A DNA stretch of 64,000 bases, from contig JAAYTD010000013.1 in assembly GCA_012518115.1 (NCBI GenBank), forward strand, positions 64,179 through 128,178, given 5' to 3'. Positions 5,260 through 43,559 of the stretch are shown in pieces. Made by a program: the position numbers and the translations under genes. This stretch comes from Ignavibacteria bacterium (GTDB lineage Bacteria; Bacteroidota; Ignavibacteria; Kapaibacteriales; UBA2268). The notes beneath the pieces were generated by a model. The model had not been told where the DNA came from and searched no databases. It worked only from the letters and a program-made list of their open reading frames with translations. How positions within the stretch are numbered: position 1 is the stretch's first letter; the number at the start of each line of letters is the position of its first letter.

Positions 5260-6015
5260 TTATTCTGGCATTGCTTTCCAAGGAACAATGCCGACACTTG
5301 CAGTTTTACCTGTTTTTGTGGTAAATTCTACATTCACAAGTCCAAATTTATGATTTGCAAAATAAGTTATTTTTTCAATAAACGGTTCATTTACAATTTC
5401 TTCGACTTTTGTTACTTTAATTTTCCACCAAACAAGATCATAGCTTTCCTTGTCTTCATCTTTATAAACAACAGTTCTAACAAACTTTTCACCTTGAGAA
5501 TTAACAAACTCATATTTATCGCCAACTTTACAATTATATTTTATAAGTGTAAACGGTTTTATAGGGTCGTGAAGAAAGCCTTGAATTCCTTGATCTGTAA
5601 TTTTTGTTTTGATATCGTATTCAAAAAAACTGTTTTGCGAATCGGAAGTATCTAATTTAAAGTTATACTTTTTTTTCATCGCATCAATCCAAGCATTTTT
5701 TACATCTACGTCAATGGTTTCTAAACCTAAAAGTGTATCTAAAATTAACTTAGCTTTTTTGTCAAAATTAACTTTTAGATGTATTGTAACAATACCTTCT
5801 TCATTTTTTGTTACAAATGCTTTTGGTTCAAATTTTCCATCTTTAAAATCACCGATTTTTTGATAAATCCCATATTCAGCACCTACTTCATTTTGTGGAA
5901 GATTCCAATTTCCTCCTAAAGTATTCGGGTCTTCTGCAATTTCTGTTTCGCAGGAAGAAAACAGTATAGCAAGAAGAATAAGTGATAAAATTAAATAGAA
6001 ATTATGCTTATACAT
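5260..6015 (-). CDS. Hypothetical lipoprotein
   Basis: N-terminal lipobox LILLAILFSSC; no recognisable domain by eye. Confidence 0.5.
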   Translation of the reverse strand: MYKHNFYLILSLILLAILFSSCETEIAEDPNTLGGNWNLPQNEVGAEYGIYQKIGDFKDGKFEPKAFVTKNEEGIVTIHLKVNFDKKAKLILDTLLGLETIDVDVKNAWIDAMKKKYNFKLDTSDSQNSFFEYDIKTKITDQGIQGFLHDPIKPFTLIKYNCKVGDKYEFVNSQGEKFVRTVVYKDEDKESYDLVWWKIKVTKVEEIVNEPFIEKITYFANHKFGLVNVEFTTKTGKTASVGIVPWKAMPE

Positions 6016-6139
6016 AAAACACCTCTAAAAAGTAAAATAAACGAAAGAATTAATTTGTAAATATATATATAAATTATCAAAAAATAAGCAAGAAGATAAA
6101 AAATAGTTTTGTTTTTGTTTGTGTTTTAATTTTATCTAT

Positions 6140-6520
6140 AATATTGGCACTCCTTAATTTGACCTCTCCAAACTCTCCCAAAGAGGGGAATTTTAAAACT
6201 CTCCTCCTTTGGAGGAGCCGGAGGAGGTTATTAATTATATATCCTTAAAAATCCCGTAGGGATGACATGATTAATAGACTACCCCGTCAAGCTAGCGTTT
6301 GCCACCCCTTCGTCCCGAAGGGGAATTTGTAGCCCGACCTTCAGGCAAGTATAATTTTAAAAATCATACTAATCATACAAATCCCATAAATCATAGTTCA
6401 GACAATTTATAGACTACCCCGTCAAACTTCGTTTGCCACCCCTTCGTCCCGAAGGGGAATTTGTAGCCTGACCTTTATGGAAAAACATCACATAAATCAT
6501 ACAAATCGCAGTTCAGACAA
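6140..6520. repeat. Intergenic mosaic of GC-rich palindromic repeat modules (REP/BIME-like), including two tandem ~125-bp units each containing gactaccccgtcaa...gccaccccttcgtcccgaaggggaatttgtagcc
   Basis: Seen in sequence: modules at 6225-6263 (atccttaaaaatcccgtagggat) and at 6277-6339 and 6412-6473 (near-identical). The same modules recur in reverse complement at 15125-15600 and at 23521-23590. Confidence 0.7.
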
Positions 6521-6560
6521 AAAAAAGACTGTCCGATTTTTTTCGCACAGTCTTTTTTTA
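6519..6560. terminator. Rho-independent terminator downstream of rocA (minus strand); A-run/hairpin/T-run, bidirectional in form
   Basis: aaaaaaaa-GACTGTCCGA-ttttttt-TCGCACAGTC-ttttttt; imperfect ~10-bp stem. Confidence 0.55.
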
Positions 6561-8371: not shown

Positions 8372-8896
8372 ATGAGAACATTGGAGTTTAGAGATAGGCT
8401 TTTGAAAATCAAATTATTAGCTATGGATGTTGATGGCACTTTAACAAACAGGAGTGTTTATTACTCTAATCGTGGCGAGGAGTTAAAGCGTTTTAATGTG
8501 CATGACGGAATGGGAATAACACTACTGCATCAATCGGGTATTCAAACTTTAATTATTTCAAGTGATCCTTCAGATATTCCGACAAGACGAGTAGAAAAAC
8601 TTGGAGTAACTTATCAAATAATAGGAGCTAAGCGTAAGTTTCTTAAACTTCAAAACTTGCTTCAAGAGATAGGAATTGCACCTGAAGAAGTAGCTTATAT
8701 CGGAGATGATGTAAATGATTTAGAAGTTATAGATTATGTCGGTTTTTCGGCAGCCCCTAAAGATGCTACTGAAACAGTTAGAAACAAGGTTGATTATGTT
8801 TTAGATTATGAAGCTGGTGGAGGCGCTGTTCGTCAGTTATGCGAGTTAATACTTTTAGCTCAAGATAAACCTATAATTTTAGAATATAAAGAATAA
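8372..8896 (+). CDS. kdsC: 3-deoxy-D-manno-octulosonate-8-phosphate phosphatase (HAD superfamily)
   Basis: ~175 aa; HAD motif I LAMDVDGTLTN, motif IV IGDDVNDLEV; size and motifs typical of KdsC. The tracked ORF starts on GTG at 8363; the first ATG (MRTLEF) is at 8372. Confidence 0.75.
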   Translation: MRTLEFRDRLLKIKLLAMDVDGTLTNRSVYYSNRGEELKRFNVHDGMGITLLHQSGIQTLIISSDPSDIPTRRVEKLGVTYQIIGAKRKFLKLQNLLQEIGIAPEEVAYIGDDVNDLEVIDYVGFSAAPKDATETVRNKVDYVLDYEAGGGAVRQLCELILLAQDKPIILEYKE

Positions 8897-11845: not shown

Positions 11846-14800
11846 ATGTCATCAAAAATAAGGCTTATTAAAATTGCTTCTGAAATTAATGTTAGCAAAG
11901 ATACCATTGTAGAGTTTTTGCTTTCCCGCGGTTTTGATATAGATAATAAACCAACAGCAACACTTGATAAAAATATGCAAGATGTTGTTTATGAAAAGTT
12001 TCATAAAGAAAAGCAAAAAGCGGAAACTCAACGCGAAAAGCTATTGCAACAAAAAGAAATAAGTATTGTTGCTAAAGCAGAAGGAAAACAAGAAAGCACC
12101 GATGAAATAGCAAAAGAAGATGCTAAACCAGTTGGTGCTGCTGAGCCTGTTGCTGTTGAAAAAACTAATGAAAAAAGCATAACTGAAGAAATTGTAGATA
12201 AAGTAGATGAAGTTGTAGAAAAAACAACTGCTTCTAAAGATAAAGAATTAGAAGATGACAAGCAAAAAGAAGCTGCTGAGACTAAAGAAATTATAGATCT
12301 TAATAAATTTGATGACAAAAAAGAAACAGCTACTCAAACTACAGAAACCAAGCAAAAACAAGTAGTAAAAAAAGTAAGTGACAAAAAGAAAACTACAAGA
12401 CCTAAAGAACGCGCTGCTAAAAAAGGAAAACTTACTCAAAATCTCGGTGATTTGTTGAAAAAAACAGATATAGTTGTTGCTAAGGAAACTGATGTTACTG
12501 AATTACCTACACGAATACAAGCGAAAATTGAAGCTGAAAAACGATCTCAAAAGGGTAAAACTACAGAAAAACCTCCTTTAGGTGATACTGAAACTTCACC
12601 AGCACCTTCGTCTGAAGAAAAGTTAAGTGAAGAAAAAGAGGATGCTAAGGAGAAGATTTCAGCAAAAACTGAAACTTTACCAGCACCTCTGTCTGAAAAA
12701 AAAGAAGATATTATTGAAGAAGCTTTGGGCGAAACTAAAGATGAAGAAAGTTTTAAGCCGGGTGATAAGATGGAACTTAAAGGTTTGACAGTGCTTGGTA
12801 AAATTGATCTTAAGACAGAAGCTTCTTCTGAACGTACCGCAAGAGATAGACGGTCGAAAAGAGATAGAGCAGCAAAAAGAGATAGACGGTCGAAAAGAGA
12901 CTCTAGCGCAACAAAAGAACGTAACGAAAAAGATAAGAAAAATATTAGAGACGGTAAAGATACTAAAGACTATAGAGATAGAAGACGTAGAAATAAAGAT
13001 GAAGGTGTAAAAAGTCAAGATAAAAAGTTTATATCAAGAGGCGAGAATAGACAAAAGCCAAAAGCTGAAAGCGATACATCTAATTTCCGTTCAAAACAAA
13101 AAAGTGCTAATGCGCCGGTACAACGTGTGTTTACTGATGAACCGGCACAACCAGCTAAATTAAAAAATGCAATGTATGCGGAGAAAAAGAAAAAAAGAAG
13201 TATCCGTGAAACATTGTCTGAAGAAGATGTGAACAGAAAAATCCGCGAAACGTTAAGCGGAATGGACGATCACTCTTTGAATATAAGAAGATCTAGAATT
13301 AAGCAAAAGAAAAAAGCTGATAGAGAAGAAAAAGAAGCTAAATTGCAACAACTTTCTGAAATTGAATCGCATACACTTTCGTTAACCGAGTTCGTAACTA
13401 CAAATGATTTATCTAAATTGATAAATGTTCCTGTGAATGAAATTATCTTGAAATGCATGGAACTTGGACTTATGGTAACGATTAATCAAAGGCTTGATAA
13501 AGATACTATTTTGCTTATAGCTTCTGATTATGGTTTGGAAGTAGAATTCGAAGAAGAAGATAAGATTCCAGAAATAGAACTTATAGAAGATAAACCTTCT
13601 GATTTGTTGCCAAGACCACCTATTGTTACTATAATGGGACACGTTGATCACGGAAAAACTTCATTACTTGACCATATTAGAAATGCCAATGTGGTAGCTG
13701 GAGAAGCAGGTGGAATTACACAACATATAGGAGCATATCGTGTGGTTTTGAAAAGTGGGAAATCTATAACTTTCCTAGATACACCTGGACACGAAGCTTT
13801 TACTGCGATGAGAGCTAGAGGCGCTCAAGTTACTGATATAGTTGTATTAGTTGTCGCAGCTGATGATAGCGTAATGCCGCAAACTATTGAAGCTATAAGT
13901 CATGCAAGAGCTGCTAACGTACCTATTGTAGTAGCTATTAATAAAATAGATAAACCTGATGCTAATCCTGATAGAATTAAACAGCAACTATCCGAACAAG
14001 GAGTGCTAATAGAAGAATGGGGCGGAAAGTTTCAAAGTGCGGAAATATCAGCAAAAAAAGGAATAAACATAGATGTATTGCTTGATAAAATTTTACTCGA
14101 AGCAGAAATGTTAGATCTTAAAGCTAATCCTAACAGAAATGCTAATGGAATAGTTATAGAATCTAAAATGACAAAAGGCTGGGGTAATGTAGCTACTGTA
14201 GTAGTACAAAACGGAACTTTGGAAATAGGACATTCATTTGTTGCTGGCGCTAGCTATGGAAAAACAAGAGCTCTACTTGACGAAAGAGGAAATAAAGTAG
14301 AAGACGTATTACCGTCGCAACCTGTAGTGGTTATAGGATTTGACGGATTGCCAGAAGCGGGCGATACTTTTAATGTTGTAAGTTCAGATACTCAAGCAAG
14401 AGAAATTGCTACCAGTAGAAGACAATTGCGTAGAGAACAAGAGATGAGAAAAGTAAGACATATTACTCTCGACGATATTTCTGCTCAAATTTCTATTGGA
14501 GGCGTAAAAGACTTGTTCCTTGTTATCAAAGGAGATGTTGCAGGTTCTGTTGAAGCACTCAGCGACTCTTTACAAGAACTATCTACAGCAGAAGTTAGAG
14601 TTAATATTCTACATAAAAGTGCAGGTAATATTACTGAATCTGATGTTATGTTAGCTGCTGCTTCAAATGCTGTTATAATAGGATTTAATACCGATACTAT
14701 GAGTCAAGCAATGAGACTTGCTGATATGGAAAATGTTGAGATTAGAAACTATAATATAATATATGACTGTATTAATGAAATTCAACTAGCTCTTGAAGGT

Positions 14801-15124: not shown

Positions 15125-15600
15125 TGATTAATAGATTAGAATTAATGTTGGGCGTGTTGAATACGCCCTTTTTTGTTTGAACTGTGATTTAAAATTTTCC
15201 TTCGGTGAATGTTGGGGCGTATTGCATACGCCCTACGAAGTTTGACGGGGTAGTCTATTAATTGTCTGAACCGGGATTAACAGGATTAAAGGATTAGCAG
15301 GATTGTGCCGTAGGCACAAAATTTCGGTAAAAGAAATGTAATCTTACTTATCTCGTCCCATACGGGACGAAACATAAGCAAGTATAAGTTTTTACCGATA
15401 TTTAATCCCTACGGGATTTTTAAGGATATATAATTAATAACCACACCTCCCCGCTGCGCGGGTACTCCTCTCAAAGAGTAGAATTTTCACCTCTGCGAAG
15501 AGCTGCAAATTCCCCTTTGGTACGAAGGGGTGGCAAACGAAGTTTGACGGGGTAGTCATTAATAATATCATCCCTAACGGGATTTATTAGGATATATAAT
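15125..15600. repeat. Second locus of GC-rich palindromic mosaic repeats, at the convergent infB / glycosyltransferase junction
   Basis: Contains ttgggcgtgttgaatacgccc, ggggcgtattgcatacgccc, gtgccgtaggcac, cgtcccatacgggacg, atccctacgggat, ccgctgcgcgg, and reverse-complement copies of the gactaccccgtcaa...ccccttcg..cgaagggg module (15233-15256 and 15489-15560). Confidence 0.7.
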
Positions 15601-15644
15601 TCATAACTCTCAAGAGGAAAATTTTATAATTATGGTTCAGTTTA

Positions 15645-20204: not shown

Positions 20205-23200
20205 ATGACACGAAGAATTACTAAATTAACAAACTTTTTGCTAATACCTTTAGCATTATTTATTTTCATTTCTCAGTCTGCTCTTTCTGCTGGCTTAATA
20301 ACAAATTCAAAGTTAAAAGAATGGATAAAATCTAATACAGATCAATTACCGGGAGTTGCTGTAAATTCAGATGGCGGGATAGATAATACTACAGCAAACT
20401 TAGAAGCATTAGCAAAAATAAATGAGTTAGATTGCAGTAAGGCCGGACTTACTACCATAGACGAATTAATTAGACATATGTCAGGTTTGGAGCAGTTAGA
20501 TTGTTCTGACAATCCTTTAACTGGATTAGATGTAAGTAACAATATAAATTTAAAAAGATTATATTGTTGGCGTAATCAACTAGCTAGCTTAGATCTAAGC
20601 AACAATAAAAAATTAGAAGAATTGTGTTGTCCTGAAAACCAACTAACTAGCTTAAGTGTGAGTAATATTACAGGAATAACATATTTGTATTGTATGGAAA
20701 ATCAACTAACTAGCTTAAGCCTTAACAATACAACAGCTTTAGTTTGTTTAATGTGTTCTGGAAATCAAATAAGTAGCTTAGATGTAAGTACGAATAACAA
20801 ACTAGAAGAATTGTATTGTGACGATAACATTCTAGTTACATTAGATATTAGTTCACTATCAAGTTTAGAAGGCTTAAATTGTTGTAATCAAGCTACAGGT
20901 TTTACTGTGTACTTAACTGAAGAACAAAAAAACAAATTTACTGAACAAAATTATTGTGATGCTATACTATCCCTGTACAAGCCTATTCCTAACCAATTAA
21001 TAAAAGATCAAAAGTTAAAAGAATGGATAAAAGCTAATAAGAATAAACTACCTGGAGTTGTTATAAATGAAGATGGTGGAATAGACAGCACTACAGCGAA
21101 CTTAGAAGCATTAGCAAAAATAAATGAGTTAGATTGCAGGGAGGCCGGACTTACTACCATAAACGAATTAATTAGACACATGCTAGGTTTGGAGAAGTTA
21201 GATTGTGCTGACAATCCTTTAACTGGATTAGATATAAGTAACAACATAAATTTAGAAGTAATATCTTGTTGGAATAATCAAATAGGTAGCTTAGATTTAA
21301 GTAACAACACAGAATTAAAAGAGTTAGATTGTTCTAAAAATCAATTAACAGAGTTAAATGTAAGTCTCACCGTAAAATTAGAAGATTTGAAGTGTTCTGA
21401 CAATCAATTAACAGATTTAGATGTAAGTTACATCGTAAAATTAGAAGATTTGAAGTGTTCTGGCAATCAATTAACTGATTTAGATTTAAGTAACAACACA
21501 GAATTAATAGAACTAGATTGTTCTGGCAATCAACTAACTAAATTAGGTGTAAGTAACAGCAAAGAATTAGAAAAATTAGATTGTTCTGGCAATAAACTAA
21601 CTAGCTTAAAGATAAATGATAAAAAAACAAATAAAACGAATTTATGTTTAAGTAGCAACACAGAATTAAAAGAGTTGGATTGTTCTAATAATCAATTAAC
21701 TGAATTAGATGTAAGTAACAACACAGGATTAGAAAAATTTCGTTGTAACGATAACATTCTTGATAACTTAGATATTAGTCCGCTATCAGATTTAGTAGAG
21801 CTACAATGCTGTAATCAAGCGGCAGGTTTTATTCTGTATTTAACTGAAGAACAAAAAAACAAGTTTACTGAAGAAGATTATTGTGATGCTATACTAAATG
21901 CAGTTTCTAATGAATTAATAACAAATTCAAAGTTAAAAGAATGGATAAAATCCCATAAAGATCAATTGCCAGGAGTTGTTATAAATGAAGACGGTGGAAT
22001 AAATAACACTACAGCAAACTTAGAAGCGCTAGCAAAAATAAACAGTTTAGAATGCAATAATTCCGAACTTACCAGCATAAATGAATTAATTAGACATATG
22101 TCAAATTTAAAGAGTTTAATCTGTAACAACAATTCTTTGACTGAATTAGATGTAAGTAAAAACATAGAATTAGAAATTTTGGATTGTTCTGACAATCAAC
22201 TAACTAGCTTAGACCTAACAAATAATATAAATCTAATACAATTAGTTTGTTCTAATAATCAACTAACTAGCTTAGATGTAAGTAAAAATACAAACATAAT
22301 GCTTTTTGTATGTTCGGGCAATCAATTAACTGGTTTAGACGTAAGTAACAACACGGGATTAGAATACTTGGATTGTTCTGACAATAAATTAACCGATTTA
22401 GATTTAAGTAAAAATACAGAATTAAAAGAGTTAGATTGTTCTCATAATCAATTAACTGAATTAGACGTAAGTAACAACACCGGCTTAGAAAGCTTGGATT
22501 GCTCTGACAATAAATTAATTCAAATTACTGGTTCCTTTGCATCATCTCGCATGGACTGTTCTCATAATCAATTAACTGAATTAGATGTAAGTAACAACAC
22601 CGGATTAGAAAGCTTAGATTGTTCTCATAATCAATTAACTAAGTTAGATGTAAGTAAAAATACAGAATTAAAAGAGTTGGATTGTTCTCATAATCAATTA
22701 ACCGATTTAGACGTAAGTAACAACACGGGATTAACAGGGTTAGATTGTTCTAATAATCAACTAACTGATTTAGATTTAAGTAAGAATACAGAATTAACAG
22801 AGTTAGATTGTTCTAATAATCAATTAACTGATTTAGATGTAAGTAACAACACGGGATTAACAGGGTTAGATTGTTCTCACAATCAACTAACTGATTTAGA
22901 TTTAAGTAAGAATACAGAATTAACAAAGTTGGATTGTTCTCATAATCAATTAACTGAATTAGATGTAAGTAAAAAAATACAATTAGATACATTGTTTTGT
23001 AATAATAATCAATTAGCCGAGTTAGATGTAAGTAAAAATATAGAATTAAAAAATTTGCGTTGTAACGATAACATTCTTAACAACTTAGATATTATCCCAC
23101 TAATAAAATTAGCGGATCTAAACTGTTGTAATCAGTTGGAAAGTTTTATTCTCTATTTAACTAAAGGACAAAAAGGCATATTTACTGAGCTACACTATTG

Positions 23201-23456
23201 CGATGCTATACTTAAAGAAGACAAAAGCATTTGTGAAATAGAATGGTTAGATATTCATCCTAATCCTACTGCAGGCAAGATCTTTATTGATAGTAAATTC
23301 ATTTCCGACGAAATAAAGATATTAAATTTAGCAGGCGAAGTTTTATATAGAGAAGCGCTTAACGCTGAAAAAACAGAAATTGATATTTCAAATCTGCCTT
23401 CTGGTGTGTATTTCGTAATCACAAAAGGAAAGATAGGAAAAGTTATTAAAAATTAG
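20205..23456 (+). CDS. Secreted leucine-rich-repeat (LRR) protein with three tandem capped LRR super-domains and a T9SS-type C-terminal sorting domain
   Basis: Signal peptide. 22-aa LRRs (LDCSxNQLTxLDVSNNTxLExL) in three blocks, each opening with NSKLKEWIKSxxDQLPGVxxNxDGGIDxTTANLEALAKIN and closing with CCNQAxGFxxYLTEEQKNKFTExxYCDAIL. C-terminal ~75 aa HPNPTAGKIFIDS...GVYFVITKGKIGKVIKN is CTD-like. Confidence 0.85.
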   Translation: MTRRITKLTNFLLIPLALFIFISQSALSAGLITNSKLKEWIKSNTDQLPGVAVNSDGGIDNTTANLEALAKINELDCSKAGLTTIDELIRHMSGLEQLDCSDNPLTGLDVSNNINLKRLYCWRNQLASLDLSNNKKLEELCCPENQLTSLSVSNITGITYLYCMENQLTSLSLNNTTALVCLMCSGNQISSLDVSTNNKLEELYCDDNILVTLDISSLSSLEGLNCCNQATGFTVYLTEEQKNKFTEQNYCDAILSLYKPIPNQLIKDQKLKEWIKANKNKLPGVVINEDGGIDSTTANLEALAKINELDCREAGLTTINELIRHMLGLEKLDCADNPLTGLDISNNINLEVISCWNNQIGSLDLSNNTELKELDCSKNQLTELNVSLTVKLEDLKCSDNQLTDLDVSYIVKLEDLKCSGNQLTDLDLSNNTELIELDCSGNQLTKLGVSNSKELEKLDCSGNKLTSLKINDKKTNKTNLCLSSNTELKELDCSNNQLTELDVSNNTGLEKFRCNDNILDNLDISPLSDLVELQCCNQAAGFILYLTEEQKNKFTEEDYCDAILNAVSNELITNSKLKEWIKSHKDQLPGVVINEDGGINNTTANLEALAKINSLECNNSELTSINELIRHMSNLKSLICNNNSLTELDVSKNIELEILDCSDNQLTSLDLTNNINLIQLVCSNNQLTSLDVSKNTNIMLFVCSGNQLTGLDVSNNTGLEYLDCSDNKLTDLDLSKNTELKELDCSHNQLTELDVSNNTGLESLDCSDNKLIQITGSFASSRMDCSHNQLTELDVSNNTGLESLDCSHNQLTKLDVSKNTELKELDCSHNQLTDLDVSNNTGLTGLDCSNNQLTDLDLSKNTELTELDCSNNQLTDLDVSNNTGLTGLDCSHNQLTDLDLSKNTELTKLDCSHNQLTELDVSKKIQLDTLFCNNNQLAELDVSKNIELKNLRCNDNILNNLDIIPLIKLADLNCCNQLESFILYLTKGQKGIFTELHYCDAILKEDKSICEIEWLDIHPNPTAGKIFIDSKFISDEIKILNLAGEVLYREALNAEKTEIDISNLPSGVYFVITKGKIGKVIKN

Positions 23457-23480: not shown

Positions 23481-23520
23481 AAACTGCTTATTGTTTTTTT
23501 CAGTAAGCAGTTTTTTTTTG
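23481..23520 (+). terminator. Rho-independent terminator after the LRR gene
   Basis: AAACTGCTTAttgtttttttcagTAAGCAGTTT followed by T9. Confidence 0.7.
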
Positions 23521-23625
23521 TTGACTACCCCGTCAATCTCGCAGGGCGTATCAACACGCCCCAACATTCACCAAAGGGGAATTTTAAAAAGCCAACTAAG
23601 TCATTGCGAGATAGTTGGCTTTATT
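23521..23625. repeat. Third locus of the GC-rich palindromic repeat family plus a 10-bp-stem hairpin (gccaactaagtcattgcgagatagttggc), at the convergent LRR / pntB junction
   Basis: gactaccccgtcaatctcgcagggcgtatcaacacgccccaacattcaccaaaggggaatttt matches modules at 6277 and 15200-15256. Confidence 0.65.
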
Positions 23626-23657: not shown

Positions 23658-25280
23658 TTACAGCATATCTATCAGCTTTTGGACTGATTCTTTCGCATCG
23701 CCCAACAATAGATGCACACCTTTTTCTTTTTTATACAGCGGATTATCAACCCCTGCATAGCCTGGATTAAGGTCAAAGTTACAAATGAAAATCTCTTTAG
23801 CTTGATCGACATTCAATACCGGCATTCCATAAATCGGTGTATCCACAGCGTCGCGCGCTGCTGGGTTAAGCACGTCATTAGCTCCAATTACAATTACTGC
23901 ATCCGTATTTTTGAAGTCGTCATTTATAGCGTCCATTTCATACAGTTGTTCATAAGACACATCAGCTTCCGCTAGTAGCACGTTCATATGTCCGGGCATA
24001 CGACCTGCAACAGGGTGAATCGCATAACGAACTTTTGCACCTTTACTTTCCAACTTATCCGCTAGTTGTCTAACTAAGTGTTGCGCTTGTGCCAACGCCA
24101 TACCGTAACCGGGAACAATTATTACCGATTTCGCATTTTGTAGAACATCAGCGGAATTGTCTTTTTTAGTTTCAATAGTAGAAGTTTGCGATGTTTTACT
24201 GTCTAACATTGCAATCAATTTATTCACCGATTCTTTTGCATCGCCTAACAGCAAATGAACGCCTTTTTCTTTTTTATACAGCGGATTATCCACTCCCGCA
24301 TAACCGGGATTTAAGTCAAAGTTACAAATGAAAATCTCTTTTGCTTGATCGACATTCAATACTGGCATTCCATAAATCGGTGTATCCACAGCGTCGCGTG
24401 CTGCTGGGTTGAGTACGTCATTAGCTCCAATTACAATTACTGCATCCGTATTTTTGAAGTCGTCATTTATAGCGTCCATTTCATACAGTTGTTCATAAGA
24501 CACATCAGCTTCGGCTAATAATACGTTCATATGTCCGGGCATACGTCCAGCAACAGGGTGAATAGCGTAACGAACTTTTGCACCTTTACTTTCCAACTTA
24601 TCCACTAGTTGTCTAACTAAGTGTTGCGCTTGTGCCAACGCCATACCATAACCGGGAACAATAATAACCGATTTCGCATTTTGTAGAACATCAGCAGAAT
24701 TGTTTTTTTGAATTTCAGTAGCAGCAGTTTGCGATGGCTTACTGTCTAACATTGAAATCAATTTATTAACCGATTCTTTCGCATCGCCTAACAACAAATG
24801 CACACCTTTTTCTTTTTTGTAAAGCGGATTATCCACTCCAGCATAGCCGGGATTTAAGTCGTAGTTACAAATAAATACATTTTTTGCTTGATCGACATTC
24901 AATACAGGCATTCCATAAATAGGTGTATCCACAGCATCACGAGCAGCAGGATTAAGTACGTCATTAGCTCCAATTACAATTACTGCATCCGTATTTTTGA
25001 AGTCGTCATTTATAGCGTCCATTTCGTACAGTTGTTCATAAGACACATCAGCTTCCGCTAGTAGCACATTCATATGTCCGGGCATACGACCTGCAACAGG
25101 GTGAATAGCATAGCGAACTTGTGCTCCTTTACTTTCTAACTTATCCGCTAGTTGTCTAACTAAATGTTGCGCTTGTGCCAATGCCATACCATAACCGGGA
25201 ACAATAATAACCGATTTCGCATTTTGTAGAACATTTTCAGACGATGTCTGTTTTGTTTCCACTTTTTCTTCTTTTTTAGG
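23658..25280. repeat. Three tandem ~540-bp direct repeats (about 93-95% identical by eye) inside pntB, each encoding one dIII domain
   Basis: Seen in sequence: units approximately 23658-24200, 24200-24740, 24740-25280; differences are mostly synonymous or conservative substitutions. Confidence 0.85.
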
Positions 25281-26168
25281 TTTAGCGGCAACAGCTTGTG
25301 TTTTTTCAGTTTTTTTGCCTGCTACAGATGTTTTTCCAGTCAGAATATCCATCAAGCTTCTATTCATTGAGCGGCACATAATCTGTGTAAGGAACAAGCC
25401 CGATGCTCCAACAATTCCCCCAACTGAAACCAAAAGTATATCACTTATCGCCATACCTGCAATTGCACCAGCAACACCACTTAGCGAGTTAAGCAATGAT
25501 ATAGTAATAGGCATATCTGCACCACCGACACGGATAGCAAAAGCGTATCCAAAAAGGGTGCTTATTCCAATACTTAAAAACAATATTATTGTAATATCGG
25601 TAGATGGATCTATTATATCGCCGATAAAAGCAGAGTAAACAACAGTAACTAACAGAATGATAAGACTAAAGTTAAGAATTGCGGAATGATTTTTCCAAAT
25701 TACTGGTCGTTGAGACAAAAGTTTGTGCAGTTTTCCTGCTGCTACTAAACTTCCAACAAGAGTAACAATTCCGACAACTATTGCTAATACTGCTGTTACG
25801 TTTGAAAAAATTGGATATTCTTGTTCTGGCGCCTGTCCTATTCCGAGTAAGGTAAGAATTCCCACCAAAGCCGAAGCTAAGCCTCCTACACCATTAAGCA
25901 AAGCAACTAGCTGTGGCATCTCAATCATTTTTACCCTGACGGCAAACATACTGCCAACAATAACACCTGCAAGCATATAAATGTATATACTTGCAACCGA
26001 AATTATTTCATTATATAGTAATGTAATAAGTATTCCTACGAACACACTTATTGCACTGAGGATATTTCCTGCAACGGCAGTTTTTACCTTGCTCATCATA
26101 GAAATACCCACCAATACTAATATTGATAGTATAGCACAAATTACTAAATAGACTGTTGAAGTTATCAT
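23658..26168 (-). CDS. pntB: NAD(P) transhydrogenase beta subunit with three tandem NADP(H)-binding dIII domains
   Basis: 836 aa: ~290-aa polytopic membrane domain, then three ~180-aa copies of SVIIVPGYGMALAQAQH...GRMPGHMNVLLAEADV...IVIGANDVLNPAA...GMPVLNVDQAK. The 4-nt overlap (ATGA) with the upstream pntA-II gene is typical of pnt operons. Confidence 0.9.
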   Translation of the reverse strand: MITSTVYLVICAILSILVLVGISMMSKVKTAVAGNILSAISVFVGILITLLYNEIISVASIYIYMLAGVIVGSMFAVRVKMIEMPQLVALLNGVGGLASALVGILTLLGIGQAPEQEYPIFSNVTAVLAIVVGIVTLVGSLVAAGKLHKLLSQRPVIWKNHSAILNFSLIILLVTVVYSAFIGDIIDPSTDITIILFLSIGISTLFGYAFAIRVGGADMPITISLLNSLSGVAGAIAGMAISDILLVSVGGIVGASGLFLTQIMCRSMNRSLMDILTGKTSVAGKKTEKTQAVAAKPKKEEKVETKQTSSENVLQNAKSVIIVPGYGMALAQAQHLVRQLADKLESKGAQVRYAIHPVAGRMPGHMNVLLAEADVSYEQLYEMDAINDDFKNTDAVIVIGANDVLNPAARDAVDTPIYGMPVLNVDQAKNVFICNYDLNPGYAGVDNPLYKKEKGVHLLLGDAKESVNKLISMLDSKPSQTAATEIQKNNSADVLQNAKSVIIVPGYGMALAQAQHLVRQLVDKLESKGAKVRYAIHPVAGRMPGHMNVLLAEADVSYEQLYEMDAINDDFKNTDAVIVIGANDVLNPAARDAVDTPIYGMPVLNVDQAKEIFICNFDLNPGYAGVDNPLYKKEKGVHLLLGDAKESVNKLIAMLDSKTSQTSTIETKKDNSADVLQNAKSVIIVPGYGMALAQAQHLVRQLADKLESKGAKVRYAIHPVAGRMPGHMNVLLAEADVSYEQLYEMDAINDDFKNTDAVIVIGANDVLNPAARDAVDTPIYGMPVLNVDQAKEIFICNFDLNPGYAGVDNPLYKKEKGVHLLLGDAKESVQKLIDML

Positions 26169-34150: not shown

Positions 34151-35224
34151 ATGCAAGAAAATTATGCTTATTGGTTAAGACAAGTAAAACGAAACGCTTT
34201 TTCTTTGTCTTATATTTCCGATGACTTAAAAACTTTTGAACTTTGTGAAGCTGCTGTAAATAAATATGGTACTAGTTTGGAGTATGTACCCGAAGAATTG
34301 AAAAGTGCTGCCTTGTGTGAGCTAGCTGTAAGACAAGACGGTGAAGCCTTAGAGTTTGTTCCTGAAGCATTACGGAGTTCTGCTTTATGCGAATTAGCAG
34401 TAAAAGATTGTGGTCGTGCTTTAGAGTATGTGCCTTTTGAATTACGAAGTGCTGCTTTGTGTGAGCTAGCTGTAAGACAAGACGGTGAAGCCTTGAAGTA
34501 TGTTCCTGAGGCATTACGAAGTTCTACTTTATGCGAATTAGCAGTAAAAGATTATGGTCGTGCTTTAGAGCATGTACCTTTTGAATTACGAAGTGTGGCT
34601 TTGTGTGAGCTAGCTATAAATAAATATGGTAGTGCTTTGGAGTTTGTCCCTAATAAATTACGGACTTTTGAATTATGCGAATTAGCTGTAAATGAGAATA
34701 GTTATGCTTTGCAGTATGTTCCCGAAGAATTAATAACTGCGGAACTTTGCGAAGCTGCTGTAAAACGGAATAGCAAGGTTTTGAAATATGTTCCTGAAAA
34801 ATTTATTACTGTAAAACTCTGCGAACAAGTAATAGAAAATATAGATGAAGAAGATGATATCTCGTCTGCATTAGAAATTATTCCTAAAAAAATCATCACT
34901 GCCGAGCTCTGTGAAAAAGCAGTGGAAAAGTGTGGTTATGCTTTGAAATATGTTCCGGAGAAATTAAAGACTGCCGAACTTTGTGAAAGAGCCGTATTAT
35001 CACGTGGATTAGCTTTGGGTTATGTTCCTAAAAAATTTAGAACTGCGGCTCTCTGTAAAAAAGCGGTAAAAGAAGACGGTTACGCCTTGTGTGCTGTACC
35101 TAAGAAATATAAAACCTTAGAGCTTTGTAAATTAGCAGTACAATTAGATTATTGTGCTTTGCAGTTTGTTCCTGCTGAACTAATAGCAGAAGTAAAAAAG
35201 ATGTTAAGAGAAGAGAACGATTGA
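34151..35224 (+). CDS. Tandem-repeat protein of ~24-aa Cys-containing repeats (DUF4116-like), array member 1
   Basis: 357 aa, ~13 repeats of xELCELAVxxxGxALEYVPxELRSxA. RBS aaaggtgaaaaaATG. C-terminus EVKKMLREEND shared with the paralogs; N-terminus diverged from the others. Confidence 0.8.
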   Translation: MQENYAYWLRQVKRNAFSLSYISDDLKTFELCEAAVNKYGTSLEYVPEELKSAALCELAVRQDGEALEFVPEALRSSALCELAVKDCGRALEYVPFELRSAALCELAVRQDGEALKYVPEALRSSTLCELAVKDYGRALEHVPFELRSVALCELAINKYGSALEFVPNKLRTFELCELAVNENSYALQYVPEELITAELCEAAVKRNSKVLKYVPEKFITVKLCEQVIENIDEEDDISSALEIIPKKIITAELCEKAVEKCGYALKYVPEKLKTAELCERAVLSRGLALGYVPKKFRTAALCKKAVKEDGYALCAVPKKYKTLELCKLAVQLDYCALQFVPAELIAEVKKMLREEND

Positions 35225-35268
35225 TTAAAGAATAAAACTAAAAAACAATAAATTTAAAAGGTGAAAAA

Positions 35269-36360
35269 ATGAAAGATAAAAAACAACAAAATTCAACAAA
35301 AGTGGAAAAGAAAGACTACAACTATTGGTTAAAAAAAGTTGCTATTTATCCCCAAGAGTTGGAATACGTTCCTACCAAATATAAGACAGCCGAACTTTGT
35401 AAAACAGCCGTAAAACATAGCGGTTGGTCATTAGAACATGTTCCCGCCGAATTAAAGACACCGGAGCTTTGCGAATTAGCTGTAAATAACTTTGGTATGG
35501 CTTTAGAGTTTGTTCCTGAAGGATTACGGAGTTCTGCTTTATGCGAATTAGCTGTAGAAGACTATGGCTGTGCTTTGGAGTATGTCCCTATGGCATTACG
35601 CACTTCCGACTTATGTGAGCTGGCTGTAAGTCAATATGGTTATGCTTTGGAATATGTTCCTGAAGAATTAAAGACTGCCGAACTTTGTGAAAGAGCCGTC
35701 TTATCACATGGATTAGCCTTGGGAGAAGTTCCTAAAAAATTACGAACTGCCGAGCTCTGTGAAGTAGCAGTAGAAAATTATGGTTATGCTTTGGAATATG
35801 TTCCGGAGAAATTAAAGACTGCCGAACTTTGTGAAAGAGCCGTCTTATCACGTGGATTAGCCTTGGGAGAAGTTCCTAAAAAATTACGAACTGCTGAGCT
35901 TTGTGAAAAAGCCGTAAAAGAAAACGGCTATGCCCTGTGTGATGTTCCTAAGAAATATAAAACTTTAGAGCTTTGTAAATTAGCAGTACAGTTGGATGAA
36001 TGTGCTTTGAATTTTGTTCCTGCTAAATATAGAACGTCTGAATTATATGAAATAATCATAAATCAACATGGACGGATGTTTAAATATGTTCCTTCTGAAT
36101 TAAAGACCGCTGATTTCTGTGAAAAAGCAGTAAAAGAAAACGGTTGTGCTTTGGAGTTTGTCCCTGAGGAATTAAAAACTGCTGAATTATGTGAAATTGC
36201 AGTAAAAACATATGGTAAGGCATTGGAGTTTGTTCCTGAGAACTTAAAAACTATAGATTTATGCAAACTCGCCGTAAAAAAAGCTCATGGTGCTTTGCAG
36301 TTTGTTCCTGTTAAATTAAAAGCAGAAGTAAAAAAAATGTTAGAAGAAGAGAATGAATAA
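35269..36360 (+). CDS. DUF4116-like 24-aa repeat protein, array member 2
   Basis: 363 aa; conserved N-terminus MKDKKQQNSTKVEKKDYNYWLKKVAIYPQELEYVP and C-terminus AEVKKMLEEENE; identical RBS/spacer. Confidence 0.8.
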   Translation: MKDKKQQNSTKVEKKDYNYWLKKVAIYPQELEYVPTKYKTAELCKTAVKHSGWSLEHVPAELKTPELCELAVNNFGMALEFVPEGLRSSALCELAVEDYGCALEYVPMALRTSDLCELAVSQYGYALEYVPEELKTAELCERAVLSHGLALGEVPKKLRTAELCEVAVENYGYALEYVPEKLKTAELCERAVLSRGLALGEVPKKLRTAELCEKAVKENGYALCDVPKKYKTLELCKLAVQLDECALNFVPAKYRTSELYEIIINQHGRMFKYVPSELKTADFCEKAVKENGCALEFVPEELKTAELCEIAVKTYGKALEFVPENLKTIDLCKLAVKKAHGALQFVPVKLKAEVKKMLEEENE

Positions 36361-36392
36361 TTAAAAAAACAATAAATTTAAAAGGTGAAAAA

Positions 36393-37991
36393 ATGAAAGA
36401 AACAAAACAAAAAAAATCAAAAAAAGTGGAAAAGAAAGACTACAACTATTGGCTAAAAAAAGTTGCTATTTATCCCCAAGAGTTAGAATACGTTCCTAAC
36501 AAATATAAGACCGCTGAACTTTGCAAAACAGCCATAAAACATGGTGGTTGGTCATTAGAACATGTTCCCGCCGAATTAAAGACACCGGAGCTTTGTAAGT
36601 TAGCAGTAAAAGAGGATGGTCGTGCCTTAGAATCTGTTCCTTCCGAATTAAAGACCGCCGAACTTTGTGCTTTAGCGGTAAAAGAAAGCAGTTGGTCATT
36701 AAAATATGTTCCTTACGAATTGAAGACATTGGAGATCTGCGTGTCAGCATTACAAGAAAACGGTTGTATGTTAAAGTATGTTCCAGATGAATTAAAGACA
36801 ACTGAATTATGTGCTTTAACCTTACAAGAAAACGTTCCTTGGGCTTTAGGATATATTCCCGAAGAATTAAGGACATCAGAACTTTGTGCTTTAGCGGTAC
36901 AAAAAAAGGGCAACGCCTTAGAATATGTTCCTGAAGAATTAAAGACATCAGAACTTTGTGCTTTAGCGGTACAAAAAAGCAGTTATGCATTGAAATATAT
37001 TCCTGAGGAATTTAAAACACCGGATTTCTATAATTTAGCAGTAACATTAAACGGTTGTGTGTTAGAATATGTTCCAGACGAATTAAAGACATCTGAACTT
37101 TGCAAGTTAGCAGTAAAACAGAATAGCAGCGCTTTAAAATATGTTCCTGAAGATTTCCGGAGTTTTGAACTTTGCAAATTGGCAGTAACATCAGACGGTA
37201 TCTTGTTAGAATATGTTCCTGAGGATTTTAGGAGCAAGAATCTTTGTGCTTTAGCAGTAAAACAAAACGGTAGAGCCTTAAAATATGTTCCTAAAGATTG
37301 CATAACTGCCGAGCTCTGTGAAATAGCAGTAGAAGATTATGGCTATGCTTTGGCGTTTGTTCCTAAAAAATTAAAAACTACAGTCTTGTGTGAAAAAGCT
37401 GTCAAGCGATACGGCAGTGCTTTGGAATTTGTTCCTAAAAAATTAAAAACTGCAGTCCTGTGTGAAAAAGCTGTCAAGCGATACGGCAGTGCTTTGGAGT
37501 TTGTTCCCAAGAAATTCATCACTACTGAACTTTGCAAACTTGCTGTAAAAAAAGATAGTGATGCTTTGGAGTATGTTCCTAAAAAATTCATCACTACCGA
37601 ACTTTGTAAATCCGCTATAAAGCGATCTAGCGGTGCTTTGTCGTATGTTCCTGAAGATTTTATCACTGCCGAACTTTGCAAACTCGCCGTAAAAGGAGAT
37701 GGTGGTGCTTTGATGTTTGTTCCTGAAGATTTTATCACTGCCGAACTCTGTGAAAGAGCTGTATTATCACGTGGATTAGCATTGGGACTTGTTCCTAAAA
37801 AATTTATCACTGCCGAACTTTGTGAAAAAGCTGTAAAACAAGATGGTGGTGCTTTGGAGGATGTTCCTAAGAAATTCAAAACCTTAGAACTTTGTAAATT
37901 AGCAGTACAATTAGATGAATATGCTTTAAGGTATGTTCCTGATGAGCTAAGAGCAGAAGTAAAAAAAATGTTAGAAGATAAGAACGATTGA
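36393..37991 (+). CDS. DUF4116-like 24-aa repeat protein, array member 3
   Basis: 532 aa, ~20 repeats; conserved termini. Confidence 0.8.
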   Translation: MKETKQKKSKKVEKKDYNYWLKKVAIYPQELEYVPNKYKTAELCKTAIKHGGWSLEHVPAELKTPELCKLAVKEDGRALESVPSELKTAELCALAVKESSWSLKYVPYELKTLEICVSALQENGCMLKYVPDELKTTELCALTLQENVPWALGYIPEELRTSELCALAVQKKGNALEYVPEELKTSELCALAVQKSSYALKYIPEEFKTPDFYNLAVTLNGCVLEYVPDELKTSELCKLAVKQNSSALKYVPEDFRSFELCKLAVTSDGILLEYVPEDFRSKNLCALAVKQNGRALKYVPKDCITAELCEIAVEDYGYALAFVPKKLKTTVLCEKAVKRYGSALEFVPKKLKTAVLCEKAVKRYGSALEFVPKKFITTELCKLAVKKDSDALEYVPKKFITTELCKSAIKRSSGALSYVPEDFITAELCKLAVKGDGGALMFVPEDFITAELCERAVLSRGLALGLVPKKFITAELCEKAVKQDGGALEDVPKKFKTLELCKLAVQLDEYALRYVPDELRAEVKKMLEDKND

Positions 37992-38035
37992 TTAAAGAAT
38001 AAAACTAAAAAACAATAAATTTAAAAGGTGAAAAA

Positions 38036-39793
38036 ATGAAAGATAAAAAACAACAAAATTCAACAAAAGTGGAAAAGAAAGACTACAACTATTGGCTAAA
38101 AAAAGTTGCTATTTATCCCCAAGAGTTAGAATACGTTCCTACCAAATATAAGACCGCCGAACTTTGTGAAAGAGCCGTAAAACATAGCGGTTGGGTACTA
38201 AAGGACGTCCCTGCTGAATTAAAGACACCGGAGCTTTGCAAGTTAGCAGTAAAAAATAATGGTTGGGCATTAGAACATGTTCCTGAAGAATTAAAGACAT
38301 CAGAACTTTGTGCTTTAGCGGTACAAGAAGAGAGTGGAGCTTTAGAGTATGTTCCCGCCGAATTGAAGACATCTGAATTATATGCTTTAACCTTACAAGA
38401 TAACGTTCCTTGGGCTTTAGGAAATATTCCCGAAGAATTAAGGACATCAGAACTCTGTGCTTTAGCGGTACAAAAAAACGGTATGGCTTTAGGATATGTT
38501 CCCGAAGAATTGAAAACGCGGGATTTCTATAATTTAGTAGTAACATTAAACGGTTGTGTATTAAAATATGTTCCTGAGGAATTGAAGACATTGGATCTCT
38601 GCAAGTTAGCAGTAACATCAGACGGCAGCGTATTAGAACATGTTCCTGAAGAATTGAAGACGTTGGAGCTTTGCAAGTTAGCAGTAACATCAGACGGCAG
38701 CGCCTTAGAATATGTTCCTGAGGATTTCAGGAGCAAGAATCTTTGTGCTTTAGCAGTAAAACAGAACGGTAGAGCCTTAGAATATGTTCCTGAAGATTGC
38801 ATAACTGCCGAGCTCTGTAAAATAGCAGTAGAAGATTATGGCTATGCTTTAGCGTTTATACCTAAAAATTTTATTACTGCAAAACTTTGTAAACTAGCAG
38901 TAAAACGAAATAGCGGGGCTTTGAAATGTGTACCTAAAAATTTTATCACTGCAAAACTCTATGAGCTAGCGATAAAAAATACGGACGTAGAATATAAAGA
39001 TTTTACCTTAAAATATGTTCCTGATGAACTTAAGACACCGGCTCTCTGTGCGTTAGCTGTAAAAAAAGATGGTCATGCTTTGGAGTATGTCCCTGAGGAA
39101 TTACGAACTGCCGAGCTTTGTGCATTAGCTGTAAAAAAAGATGGTTATGCTTTGGAGTATGTCCCTGAGGAATTACGAACTGCCGAGCTCTGTGAAATAG
39201 CAGTAGAAAATTATGGTTATGCTTTGGAATATGTTCCTGAAGAATTAAAGACTGCCGAACTTTGTGAAAAAGCCGTCTTATCACGTGGATTAGCCTTGGG
39301 AGAAGTTCCTAAAAAATTACGAACTGCCGAGCTTTGTGAAAAAGCCGTAAAAGAAAACGGCTATGCCCTGTGTGATGTTCCTAAGAAATTCAAAACTTTA
39401 GAGCTTTGTAAATTAGCAGTACAGTTGGATGAATGTGCTTTGAATTTTGTTCCTGCTAAATATAGAACGTCTGAATTATATGAAATAATCATAAATCAAC
39501 ATGGATTGATGTTTGAATATGTTCCTAAAAAAATTAAAACCGCCGACTTTTGTGAAAAAGCAGTAAAGCTATACGGTAAGGCATTGGAGTTTGTCCCTGA
39601 AGAATTAAAAACAGTTGATTTATGTGAAATTGCAGTAAAAACATCTGGTAAGGCATTGGAGTTTGTTCCTGAGAACTTAAAAACTATAGATTTATGCAAA
39701 CTCGCTGTAAAATCAAATCGCTTTGCTTTAAGGTATGTTCCTGATGAGCTAAGAGCAGAAGTAAAAAAAGTATTAGAAGAAGAGAATGATTGA
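38036..39793 (+). CDS. DUF4116-like 24-aa repeat protein, array member 4
   Basis: 585 aa; the first ~130 nt and the preceding 45-nt spacer are near-identical to member 2. Confidence 0.8.
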   Translation: MKDKKQQNSTKVEKKDYNYWLKKVAIYPQELEYVPTKYKTAELCERAVKHSGWVLKDVPAELKTPELCKLAVKNNGWALEHVPEELKTSELCALAVQEESGALEYVPAELKTSELYALTLQDNVPWALGNIPEELRTSELCALAVQKNGMALGYVPEELKTRDFYNLVVTLNGCVLKYVPEELKTLDLCKLAVTSDGSVLEHVPEELKTLELCKLAVTSDGSALEYVPEDFRSKNLCALAVKQNGRALEYVPEDCITAELCKIAVEDYGYALAFIPKNFITAKLCKLAVKRNSGALKCVPKNFITAKLYELAIKNTDVEYKDFTLKYVPDELKTPALCALAVKKDGHALEYVPEELRTAELCALAVKKDGYALEYVPEELRTAELCEIAVENYGYALEYVPEELKTAELCEKAVLSRGLALGEVPKKLRTAELCEKAVKENGYALCDVPKKFKTLELCKLAVQLDECALNFVPAKYRTSELYEIIINQHGLMFEYVPKKIKTADFCEKAVKLYGKALEFVPEELKTVDLCEIAVKTSGKALEFVPENLKTIDLCKLAVKSNRFALRYVPDELRAEVKKVLEEEND

Positions 39794-39826
39794 TTAAAAA
39801 AAACAATAAATTTAAAAGGTGAAATA

Positions 39827-41788: not shown

Positions 41789-41839
41789 TTAAAAAAACAA
41801 TAAATCTAAAATTTAGAAATTTAATAAAAAGGTGAAATA

Positions 41840-43527: not shown

Positions 43528-43559
43528 TTAAAAAAACAATAAATTTAAAAGGTGAAATA

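Follow-up and report, generated by a model that had tools for sequence, protein, structure and literature searches.

What are the GC-rich hairpins that crowd three spacers of an AT-rich bacterial genome, and how did they come to be there? The question is raised by a 64-kb stretch of contig JAAYTD010000013.1 (here, the window), which has a GC content of 33% and codes for type IX secretion C-terminal sorting domains. A reading made from the letters alone (the sequence-only reading) had pointed to three intergenic junctions, here termed loci 1, 2, and 3. We find that these three spots are copies of a real, genome-dispersed, non-coding hairpin-repeat family. The best explanation of the whole, to which we assign a probability of roughly 70%, is that the family comprises previously undescribed, non-autonomous, modular, hairpin-rich intergenic elements of 85 to 400 nt with hairpins beside terminators, which would spread, or would formerly have spread, by transposition in trans.

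A dispersed family of repeats at gene ends

The 14-mer GACTACCCCGTCAA has five exact matches in the window (6277+, 6412+, 15242−, 15544−, and 23523+) against a chance expectation of 0.15 copies, and 0 of 100 shuffles reached five. Similarly, CCCCTTCGTCCCGAAGGGG occurs at three sites (6305, 6439, and 15512−) with a chance expectation of 0.00. The three loci have ~10 hairpin modules in common, in both orientations, and stretches common to the loci in inverted orientation include 61 nt at 92%, 53 nt at 87%, and 43 nt at 95% identity. The three spacers have a GC content of 34–38% and the elements themselves of 39–49%, while ordinary spacers of the window have 12–26%. Motif counts far above chance together with the spacer GC content support the packing of GC-rich hairpins, shuffled and in both orientations, at three spots as described in the sequence-only reading. 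The same holds for the position of all loci at gene ends, two of them convergent: locus 1 lies between two minus-strand genes, i.e., the 3′ end of an aldehyde dehydrogenase gene and the 5′ end of a 251-aa open reading frame, while locus 2 separates the convergent infB and GT2 genes and locus 3 the convergent genes for a leucine-rich repeat (LRR) protein of type IX secretion and PntB.

Other details required revision. Three copies, rather than the five claimed, were found of the full composite, which consists of the 14-mer, the CCCCTTCG hairpin, and AATTTG; at the remaining two 14-mers, the next hairpin is GGGCGT..ACGCCC. The "two tandem ~125-bp units" of locus 1 correspond to two head-to-tail copies of ~135 and ~115 nt, although TRF calls no tandem array. 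The palindromes cgtcccatacgggacg and gtgccgtaggcac, listed as recurring, have one copy each in the window and are found again in L138, an unlinked, paralogous metagenomic copy.

BLAST of the composites against the whole window gave matches at these three loci only, which lie within 17.5 kb of each other. This pattern would fit duplications of purely local origin, or an assembly artefact affecting this region only. However, such an origin is refuted by loci on both sides of the window, by metagenomic copies in seven contexts, and by the reproduction of the repeat loci in at least 10 independent assemblies, one of which is a 2.56-Mb contig, and we regard it as extremely improbable. The readable sequence of this genome amounts to 84 kb, i.e., the window and 10 kb on either side. 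In the 10-kb flanks, two more loci are clear, following an LRR paralogue and a PFOR gene, respectively, and a third is weak, giving ~6 repeat loci in 84 kb; by extrapolation from this figure, we infer that the genome may hold on the order of 150 loci. A scan of metagenome contigs for an exact 21-mer identified 8 contigs (30–37% GC) with 7 distinct contexts, none of which is a locus of the window. The metagenomic copies adjoin housekeeping genes, including those for FlgK, U32 peptidase, TGT, YceD, L19, PdxJ, and a flavodiiron protein. Because additional loci were found both in this genome and in metagenomes, the motifs are not restricted to three places, and the repeats form a dispersed family as the sequence-only reading had proposed, rather than a local duplication.

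The 2.56-Mb contig in which the window sequence recurs belongs to the metagenome-assembled genome (MAG) GCA_050949285.1; the sequence is also present in many assemblies of anaerobic-digester and biogas metagenomes. The IF-2 protein has two relatives at 95% and 92% identity; the top matches after these have 59–69%, and those with names, at 50–69%, are labelled Kapabacteria, Ignavibacteria, or Bacteroidota. Based on these IF-2 relatives, the type IX sorting domains, and the digester assemblies, we place the host in the FCB group: by its sequence, it is an uncultured bacterium of anaerobic digesters for which IF-2 points to Kapabacteria and Ignavibacteria as the closest named relatives.

Outside these sources, matches to the family were scarce. 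In viral contigs, the 14-mer had single chance matches only and the composite pattern had none; BLAST against plasmids and phages in distant mode gave no match; a six-frame peptide concatenate compared with 5.8 billion proteins gave nothing at E ≤ 10; and a literature search with the element sequences returned unrelated primers only. Rfam reported only tRNA-Trp for the whole window at gathering scores, and for loci 1 and 2 at E ≤ 10 the best match had ≤28 bits, far below thresholds.

Several other origins were considered and rejected. There was no Rfam match to a group II intron, IS605-type RNA, HEARO, or CRISPR in the window or in loci 1 and 2, and ARAGORN detected tRNA-Trp only, leaving no candidate for a tRNA or tmRNA origin. 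A remnant of a group IIC intron was considered because such introns insert after terminators; neither intron boundary motifs nor an Rfam domain match was found. Integron attC sites, tRNA-derived elements, and poly-A retroposons were each rejected as no defining feature of any of them was present.

Anatomy of the elements and their relation to terminators

Seven copies from at least five loci align head to tail, with a conserved head, a conserved tail, and a variable middle (85–185 nt). The head consists, in this order, of ATTAATA-GACTACCCCGTC, a mini-hairpin of 4–5 bp (AAAC-TTC-GTTT), GCCA, a CCCCTTC(G)-loop-(C)GAAGGGG hairpin, and AATTT. The tail in many copies is AAATCRCAGTTCAGACAA, usually followed by an A-run. 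In the window at 15191–15255 and 23523–23585, and also in L132 and L140, a GGGCGT..ACGCCC hairpin substitutes for the 5′ arm of the second head hairpin. Longer forms contain extra modules, i.e., CTCCTC/GAGGAG, CCYGC/GCRGG, GGGAGGTGTGG, ATCCC/GGGAT, CGTCCC/GGGACG, GTGCC/GGCAC, and GGCAATC/GATTGCC. A covariance model of the head scored 45–78 bits for 16 distinct copies (20 rows, four of which repeat copies in the overlapping loci L144 and L146), while control loci with the bare 14-mer scored ≤27 bits.

In a 15-copy alignment, 98.6% of the cells of the mini-hairpin beside CGTC are paired. Changes on both sides were found in 10 cells and concern three of the five pairs, with A-U replaced by G-C at two positions and by C-G at one, and the stem variants include AAGC/GCTT, AGGC/GCCT, and CGGC/GCCG. 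The observed covariation score was reached by 0 of 500 shuffles, and slid controls collapsed. By eye, one can also recognise a swap of C-G to U-A in the CCYGC/GCRGG hairpin. The units, modelled as single-stranded DNA, fold better than shuffled sequence (z, −2.1 to −4.2).

Some units may be weak inverted doublets. A segment made up of a CTCCTC hairpin, a CCCGC hairpin, and GGGGAGGTGTGG, when taken from the opposite strand, scores 23–27 bits against the head model in four units, at the position where a second head would be expected, and the ends of candidate units pair at 75–80%; most copies are head-to-tail. Because control loci with only the 14-mer also reach 27 bits, these data are no more than suggestive of doublets.

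The elements lie next to terminators. At locus 1, the tail abuts an A-run that is the complement of the T-run of the aldehyde dehydrogenase terminator; the element heads at locus 3 and after the LRR paralogue begin 2–5 nt past the terminator T-run; and in L136, the element begins directly after the terminator of the L19 gene. One module, Md, itself resembles a terminator. AATGTT-GGGCGT..ACGCCC followed by T6 is the sole terminator-like structure after infB, and the same module followed by T7 is found after the PFOR gene (L143). A GC stem-loop with a T-run directly after a gene, as in intrinsic terminators, was found for the Md module only, and most other hairpins have no T-run in the terminator scan. 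The suggestion that the elements act as terminators would therefore apply to at least one module and not to most hairpins. Md with the same flanks is also present within elements away from gene ends (L138 and L136). From its occurrence both within elements and after infB and PFOR, Md appears to be a portable terminator carried by the family, and, judged by sequence, the infB and PFOR genes appear to use this repeat module as their terminator.

These findings bear on the possibility that the main role of the units is that of functional RNA or DNA signals, i.e., terminators, stabilisers in 3′ untranslated regions, or small RNAs, that were duplicated and kept by selection. The Md hairpin and T-run directly after infB and PFOR are conserved in relatives, the mini-hairpin has compensatory changes, the multi-hairpin units fold significantly better than shuffles, and the position is always downstream of genes. 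By contrast, the lack of an Rfam match and of T-runs at most hairpins is not what such signals would lead one to expect, the orientation to the upstream gene varies (antisense at loci 1 and 2 but sense at locus 3), orthologous sites have lost or exchanged hairpins with no apparent cost, and a 400-nt block at locus 1 is dispensable in a close relative (see below). We consider selection for such signals a very unlikely primary explanation of the family.

In a separate observation, L134 (~690–760), L135 (~2700–2760), and L139 (~1320–1365) share an end module, TATAACACCATTTTGAATAAATTCT, which is located ~25–75 nt upstream of the start codon of a divergent gene. This module may add to the promoter or 5′ leader of the divergent genes.

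Signs of past mobility and likeness to known repeat families

Comparisons with relatives support that the elements were mobile in the past. L140 and L141 are short-read (Logan) contigs of the two closest relatives. At locus 1, the window contains a ~400-nt repeat block (6117–6516, +), the right junction of which runs from ...AGTTCAGA into CAAAAAAAAGACTGTCC. L140, whose identity to the window is 97.7% on one side of this block and 94.3% on the other, has a 7-nt A-run in its place, while in L141 the site is filled. At locus 2, the composite at 15170–15565 is colinear with L138 at ~89%, and the flanks of L138 are unrelated on both sides. A 23- to 27-nt piece with the 14-mer (~15236–15262) is present in the window and absent from the otherwise colinear L138, and the head core therefore behaves like a separable piece. 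At the orthologous site after infB, the window and L140 have the GGGCGT hairpin, partly deleted in L140, and L141 has a CCCATTCG hairpin. A search for more empty sites by way of identical small proteins (PntA-beta and L7/L12) led only to the same species or to a 95%-identical relative that keeps locus 3. Unlinked copies and presence/absence polymorphism between relatives are general marks of dispersed mobile repeats, and the unlinked copies, the one filled/empty site, and the exchange of modules thus constitute evidence, at the sequence level, of past mobility.

Several observations weigh against the interpretation that we favor. Only one clean empty site was found, and loci 2 and 3 are common to relatives at 93–95% DNA identity; current activity is therefore unproven. 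The difference in L140 could be accounted for by deletion rather than insertion. No target duplication is visible in the filled/empty pair at locus 1 and, because the junctions lie in A/T runs, neither exact ends nor a target duplication can be fixed. The main CCCCTTC/GAAGGGG hairpin displays conservation and decay only, with no compensatory change. The terminator role is a prediction, and the metagenomic copies may derive from the same species or from others. Finally, we detected no transposase, of whatever type, either in the window and its 10-kb flanks or beside any metagenomic copy, so that the mobilising enzyme is purely inferred.

If the elements were mobilised in trans, the agent would probably be an enzyme acting on single-stranded DNA, of the HUH/Y1 type (RAYT- or IS200-like), that recognises the hairpins and the asymmetric ends. 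Such an enzyme fits better than a DDE transposase because of the asymmetric ends, the richness in hairpins, the head-to-tail arrays, and the lack of a visible duplication. The elements would persist mainly in the selectively neutral space past terminators, where a few modules would have been co-opted as portable terminators.

The repeats resemble the REP/BIME sequences of Enterobacteria and the REPIN-RAYT system of Pseudomonas in being GC-rich extragenic hairpins located downstream of genes and at convergent junctions, in forming clustered mosaics, in their many copies, and in having stems kept by complementary changes; REPs have also been proposed as terminators or stabilisers. They might accordingly be canonical REP/BIME or REPIN sequences, with REPs amplified by a single-copy RAYT encoded elsewhere in the genome and with the clusters as BIME-like mosaics. 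The possible weak inverted doublets, with their opposite-strand scores and end pairing, and the GTAG/CTAC within the most conserved 14-mer would fit this possibility. However, REPs are imperfect palindromes of 20–40 nt with an unpaired GTAG directly at the foot, whereas here CTAC/GTAG sits inside the 14-mer, and 5 nt past the CCCCTTC hairpin a GTAG is found in some copies only, others having GCAG, GTAT, GCGT, or GAAA. Moreover, the heads within loci 1 and 2 have the same orientation and the module order is head-to-tail, whereas BIME units alternate, with defined linker motifs between them, and REPIN doublets are inverted; in surveys, a head-to-tail arrangement is rare for REPs (PMC3733652). 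The conserved units of 85–400 nt with distinct, asymmetric head and tail also differ from REPs, as does the lack of a RAYT gene in the 84 kb. Overall, a canonical REP or REPIN origin is unlikely.

A CGTC-tagged superfamily of REPs, which includes the neisserial dRS3 and the rickettsial RPE-4/6, has been described from Chlorobi, Bacteroidetes, and Proteobacteria; its members are located downstream of open reading frames in several phyla and have no associated transposase (Di Nocera et al. 2013, PMC3733652). The published layout, i.e., a CGTC tag, a stem starting with A-T, and a CCA tail, is matched by CGTC|AAAC-TTC-GTTT|GCCA in 15 aligned copies of our family. Unlike in those REPs, the stem has 4–5 bp rather than 8–9 bp and the loop 3–4 nt rather than 4–5 nt (PMC3733652), the hairpin is set in a larger conserved head of 50 nt, and head-to-head dimers are not the rule. 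The comparison was made with the published layout, and the resemblance is one of layout only.

A further possibility is that the elements are classical MITEs (miniature transposable elements with inverted repeats) derived from a DDE insertion sequence, as are Correia-like elements, with terminal inverted repeats recognised in trans and duplication of a short AT-rich target. Like the Correia/NEMIS elements of Neisseria, the elements described here would be non-autonomous, intergenic, ~100–150 nt in length, and able to bring transcription signals and to fold into long hairpins. Some copies end in inverted TAATACCAAATTGAATWA-like sequences (L133, ~5290–5540; L134; L135; L139; and L144), with some of the inverted end sequences also TAATACCAAATTGAAT-like; a type-B unit has imperfect inverted ends of 16–20 nt, ATTAATAGACTACCCC and GGGGAGGTGTGGTTATTAAT; and the sizes are within the MITE range. 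Yet Correia elements are bounded by terminal inverted repeats of 26 bp and duplicate a TA target, while the commonest form here has an unrelated head and tail, the candidate inverted ends are AT-rich and imperfect (75–80%), the single filled/empty pair shows no visible target duplication, and insertion sequences with such ends were not seen. We therefore view a MITE origin of this type as improbable. The likeness to REP/BIME or Correia elements drawn in the sequence-only reading is thus correct for dispersed, mosaic, hairpin-rich extragenic repeats at 3′ ends, while the features that define REP, BIME, and Correia elements are absent. With these assignments unsupported and no RAYT or other transposase located in the 84 kb or beside any metagenomic copy, the mobilisation by RAYT that it also proposed remains a guess.

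Two further families are similar in part. Pneumococcal BOX elements (boxA-boxB(n)-boxC) are intergenic modular mosaics for which the mobilising enzyme is not known. Like these, the present elements have internal modules that vary in number and order between conserved end modules, but their sequence is unrelated, the phylum is a different one, and there is no sign of a common mechanism.

PATEs derived from IS200/IS605 have asymmetric ends and subterminal hairpins, lack inverted termini and target duplications, and may be arranged head-to-tail (PMC6006769), and the elements described here are alike in these respects. Unlike for PATEs, we saw neither a parent insertion sequence nor a TnpA or TnpB gene, no target tetranucleotide was definable, and Rfam gave no match to an IS605-type RNA. 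Altogether, the family works like those of the REP/MITE class and is a demonstrated member of none; it adds an instance to an already familiar class of bacterial repeats and is not a new kind of system.

One copy was found far from the host lineage. Among 185,579 species genomes, a collection in which the source species is evidently not represented, the exact 21-mer had a single match, in a MAG of Thiomargarita (Gammaproteobacteria). There, GCCACTCCTTCAAAGAAGGGGAAA-GACTACCCCGTCAAACTTCGTTT-GCCACCCCTTCAAAGAAGGGGAAAA fills the spacer between convergent genes for a DUF697 protein and a hydrolase, and 35 nt are identical to the window copies and the head core. This copy (L131, 1780–1865, equivalent to L146, 8004–8077) has two flanking CCCCTTCAAAGAAGGGG hairpins, and two assemblies contain it. 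No other copy is present in the 18 kb of sequence around it, which has a GC content of 46%, compared with 33% for the window, and contains genes for GOGAT, a YcjX-like (DUF463) protein, the DUF697 protein, and the hydrolase. The text of the Thiomargarita genome paper describes other MITEs and has no matching sequence. This identity could reflect a tiny element that spread horizontally, a mobilising agent common to both lineages, or wrong binning of the contig.

The boldest interpretation is that the 50-nt head (GACTACCCCGTC, mini-hairpin, CCA, and GC hairpin) and the tail form the recognition unit of a hitherto unrecognised, transposase-poor, cross-phylum mobile system that targets terminator T-runs, carries its own portable terminator module, and exchanges 25-nt sub-modules between copies. 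We consider this joint claim doubtful and decidedly unlikely. If true, it would describe a natural, very small, broad-host-range, non-coding mobile element and might supply a mechanism for the orphan CGTC-tagged REP superfamily.

The three loci, neighboring repeats, and implications

At locus 1, the repeat block includes a decayed head-like half (6160–6229, +) composed of TTTGACCTCTCC..CTCCCAAAGAGGGGAATTTTAAAA, the hairpin CTCCTCCTTTGGAGGAG, and then GGAGGAGGTTAT. In this half, AGGGGAATTTTAAAA is common with locus 3, the stem at 6203–6227 was picked up by the terminator scan, and the same arrangement is present in L143 (19382–19469), which, like L144, is sequence of the same genome outside the window. 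It is followed by the module Ma (6227–6263, +), GTTATTAATTATATATCCTTAAAAATCCCGTAGGGAT with the hairpin ATCCC/GGGAT, of which 43 nt are 95% complementary to 15400–15442; a third copy is located at 15570–15607. Element copy 1 (6270–6405, +; 69.7 bits with the covariance model) aligns head to tail with six other copies. Its head consists of ATTAATA-GACTACCCCGTC, the mini-hairpin AAGC/GTTT, GCCA, and the hairpin CCCCTTCG/CGAAGGGG, followed by an AT-rich middle and the tail AGTTCAGACAA. Element copy 2 (6406–6519, +; 74.8 bits) is arranged head-to-tail with copy 1, with its tail against the terminator A-run. The adjacent host hairpin and T-run after the aldehyde dehydrogenase gene (6520–6559, −) are outside the repeat family and are kept in L140 with its empty site; the inverted repeat (6520–6536 and 6543–6559) is 94% complementary.

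Locus 2 begins directly after infB with Md (15145–15175, +), AATGTT-GGGCGTGTTGAATACGCCC followed by T6, for which the terminator scan gave a match at 15150–15168 plus TTTTTT. With its AATGTT flank, Md recurs at 15209–15233, in inverted orientation at 23544–23567, and after the PFOR gene in L143; the module is kept in L140 and L141. The ~400-nt composite element (15170–15565, −) has its head at 15537–15565 and its tail and A-run at 15170–15190. It holds a putative inverted doublet (15425–15565), Ma (15400–15442), a nested short element (15170–15262), and the hairpins CGTCCCATACGGGACG (15354–15369) and GTGCCGTAGGCAC (15306–15318). The covariance model scored 70.3 bits at 15506–15557 (−) and 26.5 bits on the opposite strand at 15439–15487, and the ends pair at 80% (15428–15447 with 15549–15568). 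At the end of the GT2 gene, a partial unit (15566–15644, −) comprises the Ma-like hairpin (15570–15607), a truncated CTCCTC hairpin, and a tail-like CTGAAC motif. At its two ends, the locus has TAAAATTTTCCT and AGGAAAATTTTA, which are a perfect inverted pair of 12 nt.

Locus 3 is a short element (23521–23589, +) between two host terminators. It consists of the head GACTACCCCGTCAA (23523–23536), the Md hairpin GGGCGT..ACGCCC (23544–23561), and CACCAAAGGGGAATTTTAAAA, and 37 nt of it are 89% complementary to 15188–15224. The element begins 2–3 nt after the terminator-like host hairpin and T-run of the LRR gene (23481–23520, +), as detected in the terminator scan. It is kept in L160, a relative ~95% identical to the window, with two substitutions and one indel over the 301 nt compared. 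As a related observation, the paralogous type IX secretion genes with LRRs of 63-nt period (window 20205–23456 and L144 13105–14925) have a common 3′ end and terminator; in each case, an element head is located right after the T-run (L144, 14929–15273), and the internal modules differ.

Two coding repeats were noted in the same window. The pntB gene (23658–26168, −) contains three copies of a tandem repeat of 543 nt (181 aa) at 87–91% identity, and the number of repeats varies among assemblies of the same species (L147–L162), with products of 474, 836, and 1017 aa or broken into 808 + 191 + 127 aa. Either a genuinely variable repeat at the C-terminal (3′) end of pntB or assembly collapse or expansion could underlie this variation. 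At 34151–45248, there are seven tandem paralogues of 72-nt (24-aa) DUF4116 repeats, each with a conserved upstream stretch of ~47 nt that runs through the ATG (...AAAAGGTGAAAAAATGAAAGA...). The gap at 42584–43248 has a coding-like GC content and looks like a broken copy of a DUF4116 gene.

The contigs of the two closest relatives end in repeat elements, L140 at one end (13307–13438) and L141 at both (1–30 and 8611–8734). Because they stop inside elements, the family evidently breaks assemblies of this lineage, which is of practical relevance for short-read assemblies of relatives.

The finding overturns no current view and, if the mechanism is that of an ordinary RAYT or insertion sequence acting in trans, it would be routine. 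For a poorly studied lineage that is abundant in digesters, it adds a well-delimited repeat system with a head, a tail, modules, an empty site, and compensatory changes, in which two essential or central genes, infB and PFOR, appear to have a repeat module as terminator. The layout resembling CGTC-tagged REPs, together with the core identity in Thiomargarita, may provide a handle on the spread of orphan hairpin repeats.

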